DNA of 26,879 nucleotides from Candidatus Binatia bacterium (lineage in GTDB: Bacteria; Desulfobacterota; Binatia; UBA9968), in the NCBI GenBank assembly GCA_041618055.1, contig JBFJNS010000001.1:1-26879 (forward strand), read 5' to 3'. The notes beneath the pieces are model-generated. The model worked only from the letters and a program-made list of their open reading frames with translations, was not told where the DNA came from and ran no database searches. Shown in pieces: positions 20,159-26,879 of this stretch (positions within the stretch are counted from its first letter, which is position 1; every line of letters starts with the position of its first letter). Made by a program: the position numbers and the translations under genes.

Positions 20159-21259
20159 GTGAAGAGAGATAAACAAGTCCGGATCTTCAGCTCCGACGAT
20201 CTCAAAACTTTTTCTGCCGAAGTTTTTAGGCATTTCGGCATTGCCGAAGCGGACGCCCGCCAAGCCGCCGATGTCTTGGCCAGGTCCGATCTCAGGGGCA
20301 TCGACTCTCACGGCGTTGCAAGACTGCACACCTATTTCGACATGCTCGAGTCAGGACGAATCAATCCCAAGCCCAACATCAAAATTGTTCGCCAGAAGGC
20401 CAGCGTGGCAAGCATCGACGGCGACAACGGCTTGGGCCTCGTAGTCGGTCCCAAAGCGAACGAAATCGCCATGGACAAGGCGGAGAAGTTCGGCTCGGGT
20501 TGGGTGAGCGTGTCCAACACGAACCATTTCGGCATTGCGGGCTACTATCCCCTGAAGGCGCTGGAGAGAGACCTCATCGGCTGGGCCATGACCAACTCCA
20601 CGAAGCTGGTGGCGCCGTTATGGGGAGCGGAACGAATGCTTGGAACCAACCCCCTCGCCATCGCGTTTCCGGGCTACTCCGAGCCTGCCATTGTGATCGA
20701 CATGGCGACCAGCACCGTCGCTTACGGCAAGATTGAAATTGCCCTGCGCGCCAGGACGAAGATCCCCAAAGGATGGATCATCGATAGGCACGGCCGCGCC
20801 ACCACCAGGCCACAGGATATGATCGAGGGAGGCGCTCAACTCCCGCTCGGCTCCGAGAGAGAAATGGGCGGGCACAAGGGATACGCTCTGGCGGCCATGG
20901 TTGACATCCTTTGCTGCGTCCTGAGCGGCGCCAACTGGGGGCCGTTCGCCCCGCCCTTCGCCTTGAGACAGGAAATTCCTGAACGCAGCGTGGGCAAAGG
21001 CATCGGCCATTTTTTCGGCGCCATGCAGATCGACGGCTTCATCGACAAAAACGAATTCAAGAAACAGATCGACGAGTGGATCAGGGTCTTTCGCAAAACC
21101 AAACCCGCGCCCGGCACCAACGGGCCTTTGATTCCCGGCGATCCCGAAAGGGAAGCGGAAGCGATAAGAAGCAAAGAAGGGATACCGCTCCTTAAACCGG
21201 TGGTGGATGATTTGCTCGATATCTCACGGCGAACCGGAATATCGTTGGGAACAAGATAG
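20159..21259 (+). CDS. Ldh_2 family (malate/L-lactate/L-sulfolactate-type) NAD(P)-dependent dehydrogenase
   Basis: DLRGIDSHGVARL, NHFGIAGYY, LGTNPLAIA, DMATSTVAYGK, GGHKGYALA, IPGDPE. Likely GTG start at 20159. Confidence 0.9.
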   Translation: MKRDKQVRIFSSDDLKTFSAEVFRHFGIAEADARQAADVLARSDLRGIDSHGVARLHTYFDMLESGRINPKPNIKIVRQKASVASIDGDNGLGLVVGPKANEIAMDKAEKFGSGWVSVSNTNHFGIAGYYPLKALERDLIGWAMTNSTKLVAPLWGAERMLGTNPLAIAFPGYSEPAIVIDMATSTVAYGKIEIALRARTKIPKGWIIDRHGRATTRPQDMIEGGAQLPLGSEREMGGHKGYALAAMVDILCCVLSGANWGPFAPPFALRQEIPERSVGKGIGHFFGAMQIDGFIDKNEFKKQIDEWIRVFRKTKPAPGTNGPLIPGDPEREAEAIRSKEGIPLLKPVVDDLLDISRRTGISLGTR

Positions 21260-21276
21260 AAACCGAGATGATGGAG

Positions 21277-22602
21277 TTATGGAACAATGCTAGCGCGCAC
21301 CCGATCTCTCACATCGATCCTCACGAGGCCTGAACTTCGATTCTCATTTGCTCTGTTGCTGCGAATGGAAAACGGAAGATACATATAACCGCTGCCATCC
21401 ATCAGTCCGTTTCCACTAGAGTTGCTACCCCTCAGAACCGAGCTCAAGTCACCCAGCTCTGTTTTCTTGCCCGATTGAATTTCGTACTCGTACAGGTGCA
21501 GGGCACCGTCTCCGCTGCTGGTCGTTCGGGGAATCGTGAAGAGCTTGCGTTCGTCTCTGGATAGAGTCAGATTGCCGAGCCGTCGTACGGTTTCACCACG
21601 GGCAACTCTTTCTTTGGTCAGGATTGACCCCAAATCTTCCAATTTTTCGGCACGGACATTAAAACGATACAATAAACCAATGGTGTTGGCTAAGTAAATC
21701 GTCTTTCCACCTGAGGCTACAGCCATGCCCACAAAGAACCCGTTCGAGAATCGGCTGTCTGTGGGAACAAGCCGGCCCGCCTTACGGTCAAGTTTGAACA
21801 GATAGTCGGGTGCGGCCCCGTAAGCGTATGCTGCAAAAACATCGCCTTGGTTTGTCGCGATCACCACGCGGCCGACGTTTGATCGCTGGTTTTCTGGCAG
21901 GCCGCGTCCATATTTGGTCGTTCTCCCCGTGTTCAAATCATGCAGTAAGACGTTGCCGTTGGGAAAAGTCCACCCCACCAGTTTGTCCTCTTCACGCAGG
22001 ATATTCATTGCGATGATCCCCTCATGGACTATCGAAATTCCGCGGGAATCATTTTTGCTCAGATCGTTAAACTTTCCCGTGGCAAGATCGTAAGAGATGA
22101 AATGCCCACCACGGTGTTTTTCTATATTTTCCAGTGAGTGGTGGTCATGTGTGGAAAAATACATCTTACCGTTGTGCTCAAAAATATCCGAATGAACTTT
22201 CGCAACTCCCTCTGCATGCGGCCAGTGCTCGTTAGGCCCTAGGTTCTTCTCTTCTCTGAGAATTTGGCGCACGGAATTCAAAAACCGCTTTTCCCCCGAT
22301 TTTGTGTCATACGAGAAGATTAGAACATCGCCTGGTAATCCAGACCTTTCCTTTCCATTGCCTATGGCCACGTAAACGATACCGTTATGGTCTATTCCCG
22401 TGCCATGCCAAAATTCACTCAGGGTTTCCCCGCGGGGGGTAACCTCAGAAAAGTCGATGATATCGACGTTTCGAGCCCGCCCCACGTCGACCATCCCCAT
22501 GGCCAGCAGCCACGACACCAGCAGAATCGACTCTAATGCGCAGCCGCGTTTCTTAGCGGAAAAATGTATCTTGAATAGGTCGCTTTTCATGCAAGTTTGC
22601 AC
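21277..22602 (-). CDS. Hypothetical secreted beta-propeller-like protein
   Basis: Long ORF with a hydrophobic N-terminal segment and repeated blade-like motifs (IFSYDTKSG, FISYDLATG, LYRFNVRAEK, LYEYEIQSG). True start probably downstream of 22602. Confidence 0.65.
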   Translation of the reverse strand: MQTCMKSDLFKIHFSAKKRGCALESILLVSWLLAMGMVDVGRARNVDIIDFSEVTPRGETLSEFWHGTGIDHNGIVYVAIGNGKERSGLPGDVLIFSYDTKSGEKRFLNSVRQILREEKNLGPNEHWPHAEGVAKVHSDIFEHNGKMYFSTHDHHSLENIEKHRGGHFISYDLATGKFNDLSKNDSRGISIVHEGIIAMNILREEDKLVGWTFPNGNVLLHDLNTGRTTKYGRGLPENQRSNVGRVVIATNQGDVFAAYAYGAAPDYLFKLDRKAGRLVPTDSRFSNGFFVGMAVASGGKTIYLANTIGLLYRFNVRAEKLEDLGSILTKERVARGETVRRLGNLTLSRDERKLFTIPRTTSSGDGALHLYEYEIQSGKKTELGDLSSVLRGSNSSGNGLMDGSGYMYLPFSIRSNRANENRSSGLVRIDVRDRVRASIVP

Positions 22603-22751
22603 CCAACTCTTTGTCGCTTCGAAGCCCGTAATGACAGTTCTGTTCGGCGAGAGATAATGTTCGACACATTCAAGTCATGTTTTCTTAGTTTCGCGATGAC
22701 GCATTCCAAACCACACCCACCTATATCACGGGATTCCCGTCATCCCAGTGC

Positions 22752-23423
22752 CTAGCGCACCTTCCAAAGGTCCGGGGGCATTTTGATTCGCCTCTCCGCG
22801 GCCAACTTGGCTGCCCGCTCCGCGCCTGCGCGCGCATGTTCGAGTTGCCAGTTGCCGAGCTCTAATCCCAGACCATCGACCACCCGCACTCGGAAGTTGA
22901 AGTACGCGCAGACGTGCACAATGTCGAGGATATCGCGGTCGGTCCACCCTGCGTCTCTCAGCTTTTGGATATCCGCCTCCGTCATGGCGCTGGGAGTCAA
23001 GGTCAATTTCTCGGCATACTCCAGCATCGCGTATTCCGCTGCTGTCAGCTTCATCTCCCGCCAATCGGATTTTACCTGCTCTACCGCTAGATCGTCGCCG
23101 CCTTCTTGACGCAGAAACTCTGCGTGGGCGACCGTTCAGAACCGACAGTTGAGGGTGGCGGACGTCACCGTAGCGATCATTTCGCGCTGGGCCGTCGTCA
23201 GGCGCGACTCGCCGCGCATGATCTCCCACATCAGCTCCGCCGTATGCCACATCGCCTTGGGATTAAGACTGTGCAACATCGGCGGACTCACCGGCGGACC
23301 TCCCGCTTCCTTGTTGCGCTCCTGAACGAGCTTTTCTCCTTTGCGCTGCTCGCCGAGCTTTCTGTAAACCTCTTTCAATTCGCCTTCGGCTTCATGCTCG
23401 GGGATAACTTTAATCCACGGCAC
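22752..23423 (-). CDS. AhpD-like / peroxidase-related (CMD superfamily) selenoprotein, 223 aa, Sec96 encoded by TGA 23138-23136
   Basis: ORFs 23136..23423 and 22752..23054 are in one frame. Read-through gives REMIATVTSATLNCRF-U-TVAHAEFLR...YAEKLTLTP...DILDIVHVCAYFNFRVRVVDGLG, so the AhpD CxxCxxxH motif has TGA at the second Cys. GTG start with AGGAGG RBS, true stop TAG, SECIS-like hairpin downstream. Confidence 0.85.
23097..23135 (-). promoter_or_regulatory. SECIS-like hairpin 3' of the UGA in the AhpD-like gene
   Basis: ACGCAGA-GUU-UCUGCGU (23125-23109) starts 10 nt after the UGA, loop G at +18. Lower stem GUCGCC/GGCGGC. Confidence 0.7.
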
Positions 23424-23587
23424 TTTGATCTCCTCCTTTTTTTGTCATCGTTCCGGGACTCATCTCAAACCGCAGATCGATCCGGATCAAGGATCAGCGG
23501 ACGTTCATAAATCACATAATCACTTAATAGCAAGATATCTGCAAAGCATAGAGGCTCCGCCTCACTCTATTTCAGGATCATCAACAA

Positions 23588-23617
23588 TTGACATCACAGA
23601 ACCTTATCGGCTAGTCT
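23588..23617 (+). promoter_or_regulatory. Putative sigma70 promoter of the OsmC-like gene
   Basis: TTGACA (23588-23593), 18-bp spacer, TAGTCT (23612-23617). Confidence 0.45.
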
Positions 23618-23726
23618 TTTTTACAAACAGGGATGCAGGACCAGCTCAGTTTTTCAGTCGGCAGCATTGCGTTCTGAAGATTAGCCTTTCCCCGACCACG
23701 CCGTTGAACCTCTGAAAGGAGAAGCT

Positions 23727-24287
23727 ATGGAAGAGATCGTCAAAAAACTGGTTTCCCGGACAGCCAAACCTGGAGCGGGGGGGGTCCCCGGCAGCCTTCA
23801 GCCGCATCAGGACCGCGAACTGCGCGTGGCCATCGAGGCTGAAAGTCTGGACGGCATGAAAAAGCGAGCCGTCGTCACTCTTGAACAACCCGAAGGTAGC
23901 ACGTTTTCTATCATATGCGACGAAGGAGCCTATCTTGCAGGCGAGGATACCGCACCACCGCCCCTTGCCTACTTCAGCGCCGGCATCGCATTTTGAATGT
24001 TAACCCAACTGTCCCGGTTCGGGACAATCGCGAAGCTTAACGTTCAGTCAATCCGGCTCAAACAGGTCACACGGTTCTTCATGAAGGGTTCTGCTCTCCA
24101 AGGGACATTACGAGGCGGCGCCATCGGACTTGAGACGCAGATTGAAGTCGAGTCCAGCGAGCCAGCGGAGAAGATCCGCCACCTGATCAAAATGGGCGAG
24201 CAGACCTGCTTCACCCTTCAGTCGCTCGTCAATCCGGTCCCGGTCAAGACGTCGGTCGCACTGAACGGAGAGCCGCTGGTCCTATAG
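23727..24287 (+). CDS. OsmC/Ohr-like selenoprotein, 186 aa, Sec90 encoded by TGA 23994-23996
   Basis: ORFs 23727..23996 and 23997..24287 abut in frame: CDEGAYLAGEDTAPPPLAYFSAGIAF-U-MLTQL...MGEQTCFTLQSL. The TGA occupies the first conserved OsmC Cys (UxxT) and the second Cys (C161) is intact. AAGGAG RBS, true stop TAG. Confidence 0.85.
23997..24046 (+). promoter_or_regulatory. SECIS-like hairpin 3' of the UGA in the OsmC-like gene
   Basis: UGUCCCG-GUU-CGGGACA (24010-24026) starts 13 nt after the UGA, loop G at +21. Lower stem UGAAUGUUAA (23994-24003) / UUAACGUUCA (24037-24046). Confidence 0.72.
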
Positions 24288-24350
24288 GCAAGAGCCGCCC
24301 TAAAGCTCGGTTTTCACCGGTTTGTACGGCAATCCCAGACTTGTCATGGC

Positions 24351-25655
24351 TCAGCGAATCATGCTGTTCGGCAGGACCAGAGCTATTTGCGGGAATACAA
24401 CTAGAACCACGAGTCCCACGCCCATCGCAATCCAGAAGGGAAGGATACCCAGGAAGATGTCGCCCATGGAAACGTTTTCGGCGACTCCCTTGACGACGTA
24501 GACGTTTACTCCCACGGGAGGACTGATTAGCCCCATCTCGAGAACGATCACAACCAGCACGCCGAACCAAATCGGGTCGAACCCCAAGGCCAGAATCAAC
24601 GGGTGCACGATTGGAATCGTCAGTACCAGCATAGCGAAGCCCTCAAGGAACATTCCGAGCACGATGTAGATGAGCAAGATGGAAAACAGGACTGCGTAGG
24701 GCGACAGACCTAAATGGGTCAGGGCCTCGATTAAGTTGGCCGAGACGTGGGTCAGGGCAAGGAAGGGACTGAAGATAAAGGCCCCGATCAGGATGAGGAA
24801 GACAAGGGCGGTGGTGCGAACTGCTTGCAGTAAAATAGTCGAGAGCACATCCAGCGTAAACTTTCCCCGAAACAAGGTGAGCAGAAAGGCTAGACAAGCA
24901 CCGATGCCCGCAGCTTCCGTGGGTGTAAACAGGCCGGCGTAGATCCCGCCAATCGTAATAATCACGATACCGATCATGAAGCCTGCCTGCCGTGTCGCCC
25001 TCAGCTTATCGAGCCAATGGGTCGCCGGCCCCGCGGGACCGAGCTCGGGCTTGATGCGGGTCTGAATATAGATAGCCAGAATAAAAAGAGCGGTCAGGAG
25101 GAGCCCGGGCAACACGCCTGCCAGAAAAAGCCGGCCGATGGATTCTTGCGTTAAGATCGCGTAGATGACAAAGCCGGTGCTGGGCGGGATCAGAATACCC
25201 AGCGTCCCTCCAGCAGCTACACAACCGGTGGCGAGACGGGCATCATACTTGTAGCGGCGCATTTCCGGCAAGGCCACCTGGCCCATTGTCAGTGCGGAAG
25301 CAACGGATGATCCGGATAGCGCGGCGAAACCGGAACAGGCGGCGATCGTGGCCGAAGCGAGGCCACCGCGCCAGTGGCCAACCCAGGCGTAGGCGGCGGC
25401 GTATAGATCGCGGCTCATCCCCGAAACAGTGGCTAGATTTCCCATAAAGATAAAGAGGGGGATAACGATCAGCTCGTAGTTGGAGGAAACGACGAACGGC
25501 TCGGTGGCGAGGAGAGCAAGAGCCGCCGTCCAGCCGTTGGCGAAGCCGAAGCCAACGAAGCCGACCAGTAGCATGGCGATGCCGACCGGCATGCGGAGCG
25601 CGAGAAGGAAAAGAAGCCCCGCAAAACCGGCGATGCCGAGGGCCGTCGGTGTCAT
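24351..25655 (-). CDS. dctM: TRAP transporter large permease
   Basis: IPLFIFMGNL, SGSSVASA, GGTLGILIPPS, FTPTEAA, DPIWFGV, GLISPPVGVNVYV. Confidence 0.95.
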   Translation of the reverse strand: MTPTALGIAGFAGLLFLLALRMPVGIAMLLVGFVGFGFANGWTAALALLATEPFVVSSNYELIVIPLFIFMGNLATVSGMSRDLYAAAYAWVGHWRGGLASATIAACSGFAALSGSSVASALTMGQVALPEMRRYKYDARLATGCVAAGGTLGILIPPSTGFVIYAILTQESIGRLFLAGVLPGLLLTALFILAIYIQTRIKPELGPAGPATHWLDKLRATRQAGFMIGIVIITIGGIYAGLFTPTEAAGIGACLAFLLTLFRGKFTLDVLSTILLQAVRTTALVFLILIGAFIFSPFLALTHVSANLIEALTHLGLSPYAVLFSILLIYIVLGMFLEGFAMLVLTIPIVHPLILALGFDPIWFGVLVVIVLEMGLISPPVGVNVYVVKGVAENVSMGDIFLGILPFWIAMGVGLVVLVVFPQIALVLPNSMIR

Positions 25656-26161
25656 GGGTGTTTTGCCCCCGGCCGGGGGCGAGAGGCTCGGAGCGCTTGC
25701 ACAAAAAGAACCAGGGCGTAGAGCCCAGCGCCTATCGCAATGATGAAGAAGAACGGCGACCGCGGTATTTCAATGAGGTTTGAGGCCTCCCCGTAACGAT
25801 ACGCATCGAGGCCGCGCCTCCAGGTTTGCCAGGCGATATAAGAGAACAAAAGACCGGAAACCGTGTGCACGACGCGATCCGACCACAGCAGTGTGCGAGG
25901 CTTCAATCTGGAGGCGACCACGTCGAGTGCGACGTGCCCCCCGGTCCAGCCGCAGTAGGCCAGGGCGGGGAAAACGACGACGATCAAGCTGACTTCGGAT
26001 AAATCCTGCCCTCCTAGAATAGGCGCGTTGAAAACATAGCGCATGATCACGGCGACGACGGTAAGACCCATCAACCAGAAGAGAGCGATTCCGCTGATGT
26101 AAGCGCATAAGCGAACCGCGCTGCTGACAATCCTATCGAGCCGGTCAGGGCGCTTGTCCAC
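25652..26161 (-). CDS. dctQ: TRAP transporter small permease
   Basis: Four TM segments, V.MRYVFNAPI.G..DLSE, GGHVALD. Between dctP and dctM. Confidence 0.92.
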   Translation of the reverse strand: MDKRPDRLDRIVSSAVRLCAYISGIALFWLMGLTVVAVIMRYVFNAPILGGQDLSEVSLIVVVFPALAYCGWTGGHVALDVVASRLKPRTLLWSDRVVHTVSGLLFSYIAWQTWRRGLDAYRYGEASNLIEIPRSPFFFIIAIGAGLYALVLFVQALRASRPRPGAKHP

Positions 26162-26168
26162 GGCCCTC

Positions 26169-26879
26169 TCAGTTGGCGGCGCCCATTGCAGCCAGTATGG
26201 CTCTTGCCGGAACGCCTTCTTTTTCGAAGTTCGCCACGATCTTATCCCTCGCTTTGATCAGTAGCGAGTTCCCCTTTTTCACCTCGTCGGGCGATAGCAC
26301 AATCACCTCGTGCTTCGCGCTCTTGCGAACGCCATCGAGATCCTCCGCGCCCTCCCTTTCGTAGACTCTGGCACCCATAAGGCTCAGTTCACGACCGGTA
26401 GTCTTGTCGATGACGGCCTTGTGTGGACTCGACAGGCTCTCGTAGGCTCTTTTGTTCATCGCGAGAAAAAAAGGCGACCGCCCAAAGACAAGCCCAATCG
26501 TATAGTATTTGGCCACCTCCCCGATTTTGAACGATGTAATGACGGTGGGAGGAACCATAAGGGCATCCACGACGCCGGTGCTAAGGGCACGGTACATCTC
26601 GCTGGCCGGTAGGGATACGGGGGTAGCGCCTAAGGCTGCAATCAGGTCGGCTTGATCCTTCGACGGCACGCGCATCTTCATGCCCTTAATGTCCTCGACC
26701 TTGCGGATTGGCTTATCTTTCGTCATCAGGATGGGCCCGTCATTTCCCCAAACAGCAAGGACTTTTACCCGCTCGTATTCGGTGGCTAGGTACTTGTCGA
26801 ATATATCCCAGAGCTTGTTGGTTGCCTCGATAGCGTCCGATGCAACTCCAGGGAGTTCGATCATTGTCGTTCTGGGGAA
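26169..26879 (-). CDS. dctP: TRAP transporter substrate-binding protein (5' part outside the window)
   Basis: Frame is open to the window edge (FPRTTMIELPG...). KPIRKVEDIKGMKMRVP retains the carboxylate-binding Arg; EMYRALSTGVVD. Confidence 0.92.
   Translation of the reverse strand, partial: FPRTTMIELPGVASDAIEATNKLWDIFDKYLATEYERVKVLAVWGNDGPILMTKDKPIRKVEDIKGMKMRVPSKDQADLIAALGATPVSLPASEMYRALSTGVVDALMVPPTVITSFKIGEVAKYYTIGLVFGRSPFFLAMNKRAYESLSSPHKAVIDKTTGRELSLMGARVYEREGAEDLDGVRKSAKHEVIVLSPDEVKKGNSLLIKARDKIVANFEKEGVPARAILAAMGAAN

Follow-up and report, generated by a model that had tools for sequence, protein, structure and literature searches.

Two divergent genes with in-frame UGA codons in a Binatia genome encode probable AhpD-like and OsmC-like selenoproteins from loosely linked families

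Near the end of a 26,879-nucleotide stretch of DNA from Candidatus Binatia bacterium (assembly GCA_041618055.1, contig JBFJNS010000001.1, positions 1 to 26,879; hereafter the window), an AhpD-like and an OsmC-like reading frame lie head to head at positions 22752–24287, and each is interrupted by a single TGA at the codon where its protein family has a redox cysteine. The locus therefore raises two questions: whether it holds four gene fragments or two genes for selenoproteins, and whether the two products work together as a redox couple, as was proposed in an initial annotation made from the sequence alone. Here we find two intact selenoprotein genes, not four fragments. For the overall explanation, in which UGA is read as selenocysteine (Sec) under the direction of a bacterial Sec insertion sequence (SECIS) in each mRNA and the two families are loosely linked in genomes, we estimate a probability of about 0.85.

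The two divergent genes

Re-reading the sequence reproduced the layout that had been described initially: two genes diverging from a 303-bp intergenic spacer (23424–23726) that contains both ribosome-binding sites, each gene having one TGA at a redox Cys position, a downstream hairpin and a terminal TAG. The AhpD-like gene (22752–23423, minus strand; 223 codons in read-through translation) starts with GTG at 23423, 6 nt downstream of the ribosome-binding site AGGAGGAG (23430–23437, minus strand), and ends with TAG at 22754–22752. The sole in-frame TGA of this frame (23138–23136) corresponds to Sec96, the second redox position of a C93-x-x-U96 motif within the local read-through sequence N-C-R-F-U-T-V-A-H; its partner Cys93 is encoded by a TGT codon (23145–23147) and occupies a column conserved in the alignment. 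The product scored 128.4 bits against the NCBIfam model TIGR01926 ('peroxidase-related enzyme', CMD fold; cut-off 81.8) and 43.9 bits against Pfam CMD (cut-off 23). The solved structures nearest to it by sequence were the AhpD-like hexamer proteins 6K40, 3C1L, 2OYO and 2PFX, in which U96 aligns with the second Cys of CxxC (CRFU being aligned to CVYC of 6K40), as it does in the full-length database homologues. Compared with the Cys forms of about 185 aa, the orthologue group of the window has a longer N-terminal insert and a C-terminal tail of about 35 residues. We call the protein only AhpD-like, not AhpD proper, because its score against the AhpD core-domain model TIGR00778 (27.3) fell below the cut-off of 27.8 and no ahpC gene adjoins it in the window. 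It is also distinct from the NF041238 (AhpD_rel_CFYUT) family, against which it scored 56.8 bits where 175 are required.

The OsmC-like gene (23727–24287, plus strand; 186 codons in read-through translation) starts with ATG at 23727, preceded by the ribosome-binding site AGGAG (23717–23721), and ends with TAG at 24285–24287. Its only in-frame TGA (23994–23996) corresponds to Sec90 of a U-M-L-T (UxxT) motif, in the local context G-I-A-F-U-M-L-T. This is the position of the first conserved Cys of the OsmC family, which is the peroxidatic Cys in characterised OsmC and Ohr proteins. A TGC codon (24207–24209) encodes Cys161, the invariant second Cys of the family alignment and, by analogy with OsmC/Ohr, the putative resolving Cys. 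The product scored 172.4 bits against NCBIfam NF041052, the OsmC-related (seleno)protein model (cut-off 95), with U90 and C161 in conserved columns, and 35.9 bits against Pfam OsmC. The NF041052 alignment contains an invariant C64-D65-E66, and the window protein shares the N-terminal extension of the rest of the family. U90 aligns with Cys in full-length homologues, and both U90 and C161 align with the two Cys of the nearest solved structure, 3CJE. An AlphaFold model (predicted local distance difference test score 80) retrieved the same structure as the best Foldseek match (E 1.8e-10, TM 0.79), followed by many OsmC/Ohr structures, so that the OsmC fold is confirmed at the level of the predicted model.

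Selenocysteine at the two UGA codons

The initial annotation took both genes for probable selenoproteins, one AhpD-like and one OsmC-like, in which Sec replaces the redox Cys, and proposed a test for alternation between Cys and TGA codons among homologues. Relatives of the OsmC-like gene were taken from 80 species-representative genome loci, which together with their tandem paralogues comprised 94 gene copies. The codon aligned with U90 was TGA in 29 of these copies, TGC or TGT in 58 and a Ser codon in 7, and TGA forms were present in metagenome-assembled genomes (MAGs) labelled Binatia, Acidobacteriota, Actinomycetota, Chloroflexota (Dehalococcoidia, SAR202 and Thermomicrobiales) and Tectomicrobia, among others. 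The codon for Cys161 is a Cys codon in the window, in all 80 primary loci and in most tandem paralogues. The AhpD-like gene was compared with 80 metagenome loci carrying an AhpD-like Sec gene 72–89% identical to that of the window. The codon aligned with U96 was TGA in all 80 of these orthologues and in every paralogue recovered in phylum and order scans, and it was Cys in the full-length homologues.

Tandem OsmC-like genes were frequent in this set, and the upstream copy also has a TGA in two close relatives (L016:1206–1634 and L018:826–1176). In seven loci, Acidobacteriota-type and related (L046, L047, L050, L052, L055, L061 and L066), the first redox residue of the upstream copy is Ser, as is residue 161 in six of them (L061 is not covered there), which suggests that these Ser-form copies are a redox-inactive partner subunit.

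A 7-bp hairpin with a GUU loop follows each UGA: ACGCAGA-GUU-UCUGCGU (23109–23125, minus strand) begins 10 nt after the UGA of the AhpD-like mRNA, and UGUCCCG-GUU-CGGGACA (24010–24026, plus strand) 13 nt after that of the OsmC-like mRNA. In the mechanism that we propose, each hairpin would act as a bacterial SECIS and recruit SelB with Sec-tRNA(Sec), and the UGA would then be read as Sec. The folds of the single sequences are unremarkable (z-scores of −1.33 for the AhpD-like and −2.72 for the OsmC-like hairpin), and the significance of the hairpins therefore rests on their conservation across homologues. In 74 distinct AhpD-like sequences, 97.5% of the stem cells were paired, versus 21–68% in slid controls, and one pair was C-G in 47 sequences and G-C in 26. 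The OsmC-like hairpins were judged from per-sequence folds with the Cys forms as a control. A hairpin was found at the same place in 29 of 29 TGA forms, with differing stem sequences (for example, UGUCCCG/CGGGACA, CUCGCUC/GAGCGAG and GUGUCGC/GCGAC), and the mean minimum free energy of the 30 nt at +11 to +40 was −9.8 kcal/mol for the 29 TGA forms versus −2.6 for the 58 Cys forms (Mann–Whitney p = 7e-14, for sequences that are not independent). The closest Cys forms, L023 and L024, have lost the hairpin. RNAalifold returned no consensus structure on the ungapped OsmC-like SECIS alignment because the clades differ by 1 nt in the register of the stem, and an Rfam scan of 22000–25000 gave chance-level matches only, with no SECIS family.

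Could the TGAs instead be nonsense mutations in pseudogenes, or could they and the junction between the genes be sequencing or assembly artefacts? Standard gene calling would fit that view: as the initial annotation had anticipated, gene callers fragment both genes, relatives being called as small open reading frames (ORFs) of 95 + 126 aa and 89 + 106 aa, and more than 100 close AhpD-like homologues are recorded only as the piece of about 126 aa after the TGA. A broken copy does exist in L014:4001–4339, on a 3.36-Mb metagenome contig, where an OsmC-like gene, 70–81% identical over the first approximately 100 residues, is truncated and has several transposase genes alongside; this copy appears genuinely disrupted, unlike the intact Sec forms. 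The same TGA recurs in all 80 AhpD-like orthologues and in 29 of the 94 OsmC-like copies, flanked by conserved coding sequence, which points the other way, as do codon-usage scores that are coding-like on both sides of each TGA and compensatory changes that preserve the hairpins. No single independent contig covering the entire spacer was found, but contigs from independent runs and studies tile 22991–24274 with overlaps and show zero differences at either TGA. Because these contigs agree at both sites, with no TGC or TGT of the kind named initially as a contrary sign, the TGAs are not sequencing errors, and we consider pseudogenes or artefacts extremely improbable. Reading UGA as Sec restores two antioxidant enzymes where annotation of these genes, and of hundreds of publicly deposited relatives, shows small hypothetical ORFs.

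We then turn to the Sec machinery, for which the initial annotation had proposed a search of the genome. The window belongs to a 3.15-Mb MAG of 544 contigs, rated 66% complete; the host comes from marine and sediment metagenomes, and its nearest relatives are labelled Binatia, 'Deltaproteobacteria' or Syntrophobacteraceae. One part of the machinery was recovered: tRNA-Sec (selC) is present, with 76.7 bits against an Rfam gathering score of 47 and an ARAGORN call of SeC(tca), that is, a UCA anticodon. The other part was not: searches of this MAG with family hidden Markov models (HMMs) and by tblastn with same-class proteins recovered no selA, selB or selD. A weak SelD match was ThiL, and weak SelA (pyridoxal phosphate enzyme) and SelB (GTPase) matches lay far under the family cut-offs and were unrelated proteins. 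EF-Tu was not picked up either by tblastn with a SelB query in the MAG, which fits its low completeness. Relatives do have selD: 4 of 5 other same-family genomes carry it, as do 47 of 61 across the class, and G263, G036 and G020 each possess selA, selB, selC and selD. Most class genomes encode selD with a single in-frame TGA (approximately 32 of 48 matches), and a subset of the class matches is about 750–800 aa long, without TGA and fusion-like.

The missing selA, selB and selD speak against Sec decoding, and so does one genome of the same family, G291. This genome has a completeness rating of 100% and contains TGA-bearing genes of both families together with an intact hairpin (C113:1918–2337, C189:21976–22521 (L096/L117) and C238:640–963), and none of selA, selB, selC and selD was found in it; the selC of the window's genome, used as a DNA query, had no match in G291, yet detects the gene in a genome more distantly related. 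Either binning missed the sel loci of G291, or this lineage lost or changed its machinery. Both absences would fit a different decoding of UGA, as Cys by a Sec-like tRNA(Cys) or SelB variant or, genome-wide, as Trp or Gly, which would give full-length proteins free of selenium; two database homologues are indeed translated with W at the site, probably a gene-caller artefact. Evidence against such decoding includes the use of TGA as a normal stop by many genes, among them the neighbouring DctM gene (TGA at 24351–24353). The canonical tRNA-Sec with its UCA anticodon, SECIS-type hairpins that accompany the TGA forms only, and selD, itself Sec-containing, in 4 of 5 same-family genomes likewise argue against selenium-free decoding, and the MAG that lacks selA, selB and selD is only 66% complete. 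We regard such decoding as very improbable. From the tRNA-Sec, the further TGA-containing family matches in the MAG (described below) and the selD genes of same-family genomes, the organism is taken to be a Sec user whose sel genes were simply not assembled. Sec decoding is thus the reading we retain, and codon alternation, TGA-only hairpins and tRNA-Sec together make it highly probable that the AhpD-like and OsmC-like genes both encode selenoproteins, in agreement with the initial annotation.

Neither family is new. Both have been known since 2005, have curated models (TIGR01926 and NF041052) and, as noted initially, had been described individually. The Sargasso Sea selenoproteome listed an 'AhpD-like protein' (COG2128, CXXU, 27 sequences) and an 'OsmC-like protein' (COG1765, UXXT, 3 sequences), both with SECIS (PMC1088965); the Global Ocean Sampling data contained 299 Sec and 902 Cys sequences of AhpD-like 1 and 5 Sec and 161 Cys sequences of the OsmC-like family (PMC2398784); and a 2026 review names both, as TIGR01926 CxxU and PF02566 UxxT (PMC13188914). 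The window proteins differ from these families in nothing essential. The AhpD-like orthologue shares with COG2128/TIGR01926 the CxxU motif with Sec second, the SECIS after the UGA and widespread Cys homologues, and the OsmC-like protein shares with PF02566/NF041052 the UxxT motif, the invariant second Cys and the OsmC fold. The locus represents no new protein family, decoding mechanism or kind of system.

Linkage of the two families and a possible redox relay

Beyond the selenoproteins themselves, the initial annotation had proposed that the divergent pair forms a co-regulated, all-selenium couple, and had named conservation of the pairing as a check. Conservation of the divergent pair was not borne out, and several results weigh against a fixed module. 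No divergent head-to-head pair was found in relatives, among the 80 genome loci, the 80 metagenome loci or 31 genomes of the same order, and the form is kept by none of the closest OsmC loci (L015–L020) nor of the closest AhpD loci (L106–L111 and L223). An AhpD-like gene lies within 5 kb in only 3 of the 80 OsmC-side genome loci (L092, L085 and L034), in none of them divergently; complete genomes of the order, such as G338, have the orthologues more than 1 Mb apart; and about 80% of the orthologous AhpD-like loci have no OsmC neighbour. The six closest OsmC orthologues (82–90% identity) are flanked by a tandem OsmC-like paralogue or by unrelated genes, and the closest AhpD orthologues (L106–L111, 80–90%) have neighbours other than OsmC-like genes. 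Scanning the spacer for a shared promoter or operator gave nothing beyond shuffles, with no sigma-70-like promoter or operator-like palindrome; the sole promoter-like match of the scan lay outside the spacer, at 22631–22658, and one weak inverted repeat overlaps the OsmC-like ribosome-binding site.

Nucleotide synteny places the break within the spacer. L016 and L018 align to 23713–26879 of the window (the OsmC-like gene and a TRAP transporter), L106 and L111 align to 22751–23442 (the AhpD-like gene), and the central spacer, 23443–23712, has no counterpart in relatives. Because synteny from the OsmC side and from the AhpD side ends between 23443 and 23712, two conserved blocks abut inside the spacer, and since the relatives keep other layouts, the head-to-head form is a local, lineage-specific rearrangement. 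It is one local arrangement and not a conserved operon.

From the 80 OsmC-side loci and six AhpD loci, the pairing had seemed to be absent from relatives altogether, a view that the AhpD-side metagenome scan overturned. In that scan, 17 of the 80 metagenome loci had an OsmC-family gene, or two of them, no more than 3.5 kb from the AhpD-like orthologue. After clustering of the AhpD-like proteins at 95% identity, an OsmC neighbour was present in 13 of 57 clusters, the window included, and of the 33 loci whose flanks reach 1 kb or more on each side, 7 had an OsmC-family gene within 1 kb. All ten OsmC neighbours tested matched Pfam OsmC with NF041052 as the best match, six of them above the NF041052 cut-off, and across the 3.15-Mb genome to which the window belongs, the same HMM gave a background of 2 matches; the resulting enrichment is approximate because the loci are related to one another.

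The neighbouring genes occur in at least five arrangements, which include convergent, co-directional and divergent ones. OsmC Sec forms converge on the AhpD-like gene at about 280–360 nt in L148, L153 and L155, and the convergent neighbour in L161 is orthologous to the OsmC-like protein of the window, at 89% identity. OsmC genes lie immediately upstream in the same direction, 75–230 nt away, in L160, L175, L196 and L143 (Cys forms) and in L150 (Sec form); in L152, L171–L173, L186, L187, L201 and L207 they are 0.8–3.4 kb off, in either orientation. NF041052 Sec forms are present in 29 of the 31 same-order genomes, AhpD-like matches in 12 and adjacency in 3: G372 has a convergent pair 115 nt apart, both Sec; G368 has an OsmC-Cys gene directly upstream of the AhpD-like gene and a Sec OsmC-like gene 2.4 kb away; and the third is the divergent pair of this window. 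In the other genomes, closed ones among them, the orthologues are widely separated. The two families are thus linked, by this approximate measure, well above chance through several independent juxtapositions, and the linkage is loose and repeatedly rearranged. For the functional module proposed initially, the outcome is divided: OsmC genes do recur beside the AhpD-like orthologue, in approximately 20% of loci, and the divergent form is not conserved.

Paralogue arrays were a further feature of these neighbourhoods. In 27 of the 80 metagenome loci (L141–L220), one to three more AhpD-like/CMD genes stand immediately downstream of the AhpD-like orthologue on the same strand, mostly Sec forms with their own TGA and hairpin, and OsmC-like genes sometimes flank the array (examples are L172:2162–6610, L173:4001–8066, L145 and L149). 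The window has no such multi-selenoprotein cluster.

How might the two proteins cooperate? By analogy with OsmC/Ohr and AhpD chemistry (PMC8945050), the Sec90 selenolate of the OsmC-like protein would reduce an organic hydroperoxide and be converted to a selenenic acid, which would condense with Cys161 to form a selenenylsulfide. The C93-x-x-U96 centre of the AhpD-like protein could then re-reduce this selenenylsulfide, and would itself be recycled by a dihydrolipoyl donor (lipoyl protein/NADH) or one of the thioredoxin type. Against the first step stands the NF041052 family alignment, in which there is no invariant Arg. For this reason the canonical catalytic Arg of OsmC/Ohr is not confirmed, a peroxidase activity is only inferred, and the window protein, judged from its alignment, would not qualify as a canonical OsmC or Ohr.

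The proposed relay has a precedent for Cys forms. In Corynebacterium glutamicum, the AhpD-like protein CgAhp, together with Lpd, SucB and NADH, preferentially supports OsmC and Ohr with cumene hydroperoxide, with kcat/Km values of 1.9e6 and 1.1e6 M−1 s−1 for OsmC and Ohr, respectively (PMC10460364, and Si et al. 2019 cited therein). An AhpD-fold oxidoreductase that recycles an OsmC-family hydroperoxide reductase is the mechanism proposed here. In C. glutamicum, however, Cys occupies every redox position and no pairing of the genes is reported, whereas the window proteins are both Sec forms; the motif of CgAhp is C-P-G-C. The AhpC–AhpD–DlaT–Lpd relay of Mycobacterium tuberculosis offers a second parallel, in which an AhpD-fold CxxC disulfide reductase is fed by lipoamide and serves a peroxidase (PMC8945050). 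There the partner is the peroxiredoxin AhpC, encoded in an ahpC–ahpD operon, whereas the partner in the window is OsmC-like and the protein only AhpD-like; M. tuberculosis AhpD is not the structure nearest to it, 6K40 and 3C1L being nearer. Adjacent genes for Prx-like and AhpD-type selenoproteins are also known and resemble the window in being a neighbouring pair that hints at a common redox process, with a Prx-like partner in place of the OsmC-like one. The two families are each established, as are adjacent selenoprotein genes in general and the transfer of electrons from AhpD to OsmC. A pairing of AhpD-like with OsmC-like genes was not mentioned in the literature searched, and the recurrent linkage of the Sec forms of the two families may be new.

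The main rival to a direct partnership leaves both proteins as true selenoproteins but makes them independent antioxidant enzymes in a redox-gene-rich neighbourhood, adjacent only through a general clustering of redox and selenoprotein genes and through paralogue arrays. There would be no direct electron transfer, and the donors of the two proteins would be separate, lipoyl proteins being one option for the OsmC-like protein. The unconserved arrangement and the roughly 80% of orthologous loci that lack an OsmC neighbour favour this alternative, and each gene keeps company with its own kind more often than with the other: AhpD-like Sec paralogues follow the AhpD-like orthologue more frequently (27 of 80 loci) than OsmC does, and OsmC-like genes are more often in tandem with OsmC-like paralogues. 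Biochemistry leaves room for it as well, as lipoylated proteins can reduce OsmC and Ohr directly and AhpD-like proteins may have peroxidase activity themselves (PMC8945050). Set against independence are the density of OsmC genes near the AhpD-like orthologue, which is far over background (17 of 80 loci versus 2 matches in 3.15 Mb), the origin of the adjacency in several geometries, and the experimental preference of an AhpD-like protein for supporting OsmC (PMC10460364). We regard independence as a serious possibility, held at somewhat less than even odds.

For the direct partnership itself, coupling in this organism is inferred from gene neighbourhood only. The neighbourhood statistics make a co-regulated all-selenium couple plausible, not as a conserved divergent module, and by analogy with the Cys systems the two proteins might act in one pathway as direct redox partners, a claim that we put forward tentatively. 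More doubtful still is the stronger form, a dedicated all-selenium hydroperoxide relay of this Binatia-like lineage, with selenenylsulfide or diselenide exchange between Sec90 and Sec96, within a reshuffled selenoprotein cluster of two to four AhpD-like and one or two OsmC-like genes that is undescribed in the literature searched. As a testable hypothesis, the reshuffled linkage of Sec AhpD-like and OsmC-like genes points to a selenium version of the known AhpD-to-OsmC relay, in poorly studied, selenoprotein-rich bacteria of sediment and groundwater.

Other one-TGA frames and neighbouring sequence

A scan of the MAG for read-through TGA ORFs produced hundreds of false positives; a codon-usage filter reduced them to 116, from which 20 were picked by hand and compared with NCBIfam. 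At least 12 further ORFs with one TGA matched selenoprotein or redox families, several of them under the curated cut-offs, and we treat them as candidates. They include a second OsmC-related (seleno)protein (C362:2275–2841), a second TIGR01926 protein (C342:2794–3345), a YciW-related CMD protein (C383:1339–1923), a UGSC family (seleno)protein (C111:2132–2962), two GrdB-family selenoprotein B candidates (C103:854–2155 and C143:4430–5791), an HdrA candidate (C52:2–1240), a UGPC glutaredoxin-like candidate (C380:2600–2860), two UxxC Prx/Trx-fold candidates (C11:2656–3141 and C316:76–582) and two MerB-like candidates (C79:6388–6876 and C262:1179–1697). Five other read-through candidates (on C136, C142, C102, C216 and C155) had no NCBIfam family match, and those on C147 (SufB then NifS) and C26 were rejected as selenoproteins, being adjacent genes in frame.

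An ORF of the RtcB RNA ligase family in the same MAG (C101:2222–3670; L137) has an in-frame TGA at about residue 100, in the sequence Y-D-I-N-U-G-V-R, and the strong RtcB match starts right after this TGA. The codon may encode a Sec (or Cys-equivalent) metal ligand, or it may simply end an upstream ORF in frame.

Last, the sequence beyond the AhpD-like gene differs between the window and L106, whose AhpD-like gene is 90% identical. Between Ldh_2 and the AhpD-like gene, the window has an ORF of 441 aa (21277–22602) with a signal-peptide-like N-terminus and no Pfam match. In L106, a 73-bp stretch that is 89% identical to the 3′ end of the window Ldh_2 directly follows the AhpD-like gene (L106:1376–1448, matching window 21187–21259). 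This comparison suggests that the 441-aa ORF was inserted or deleted between the two genes.

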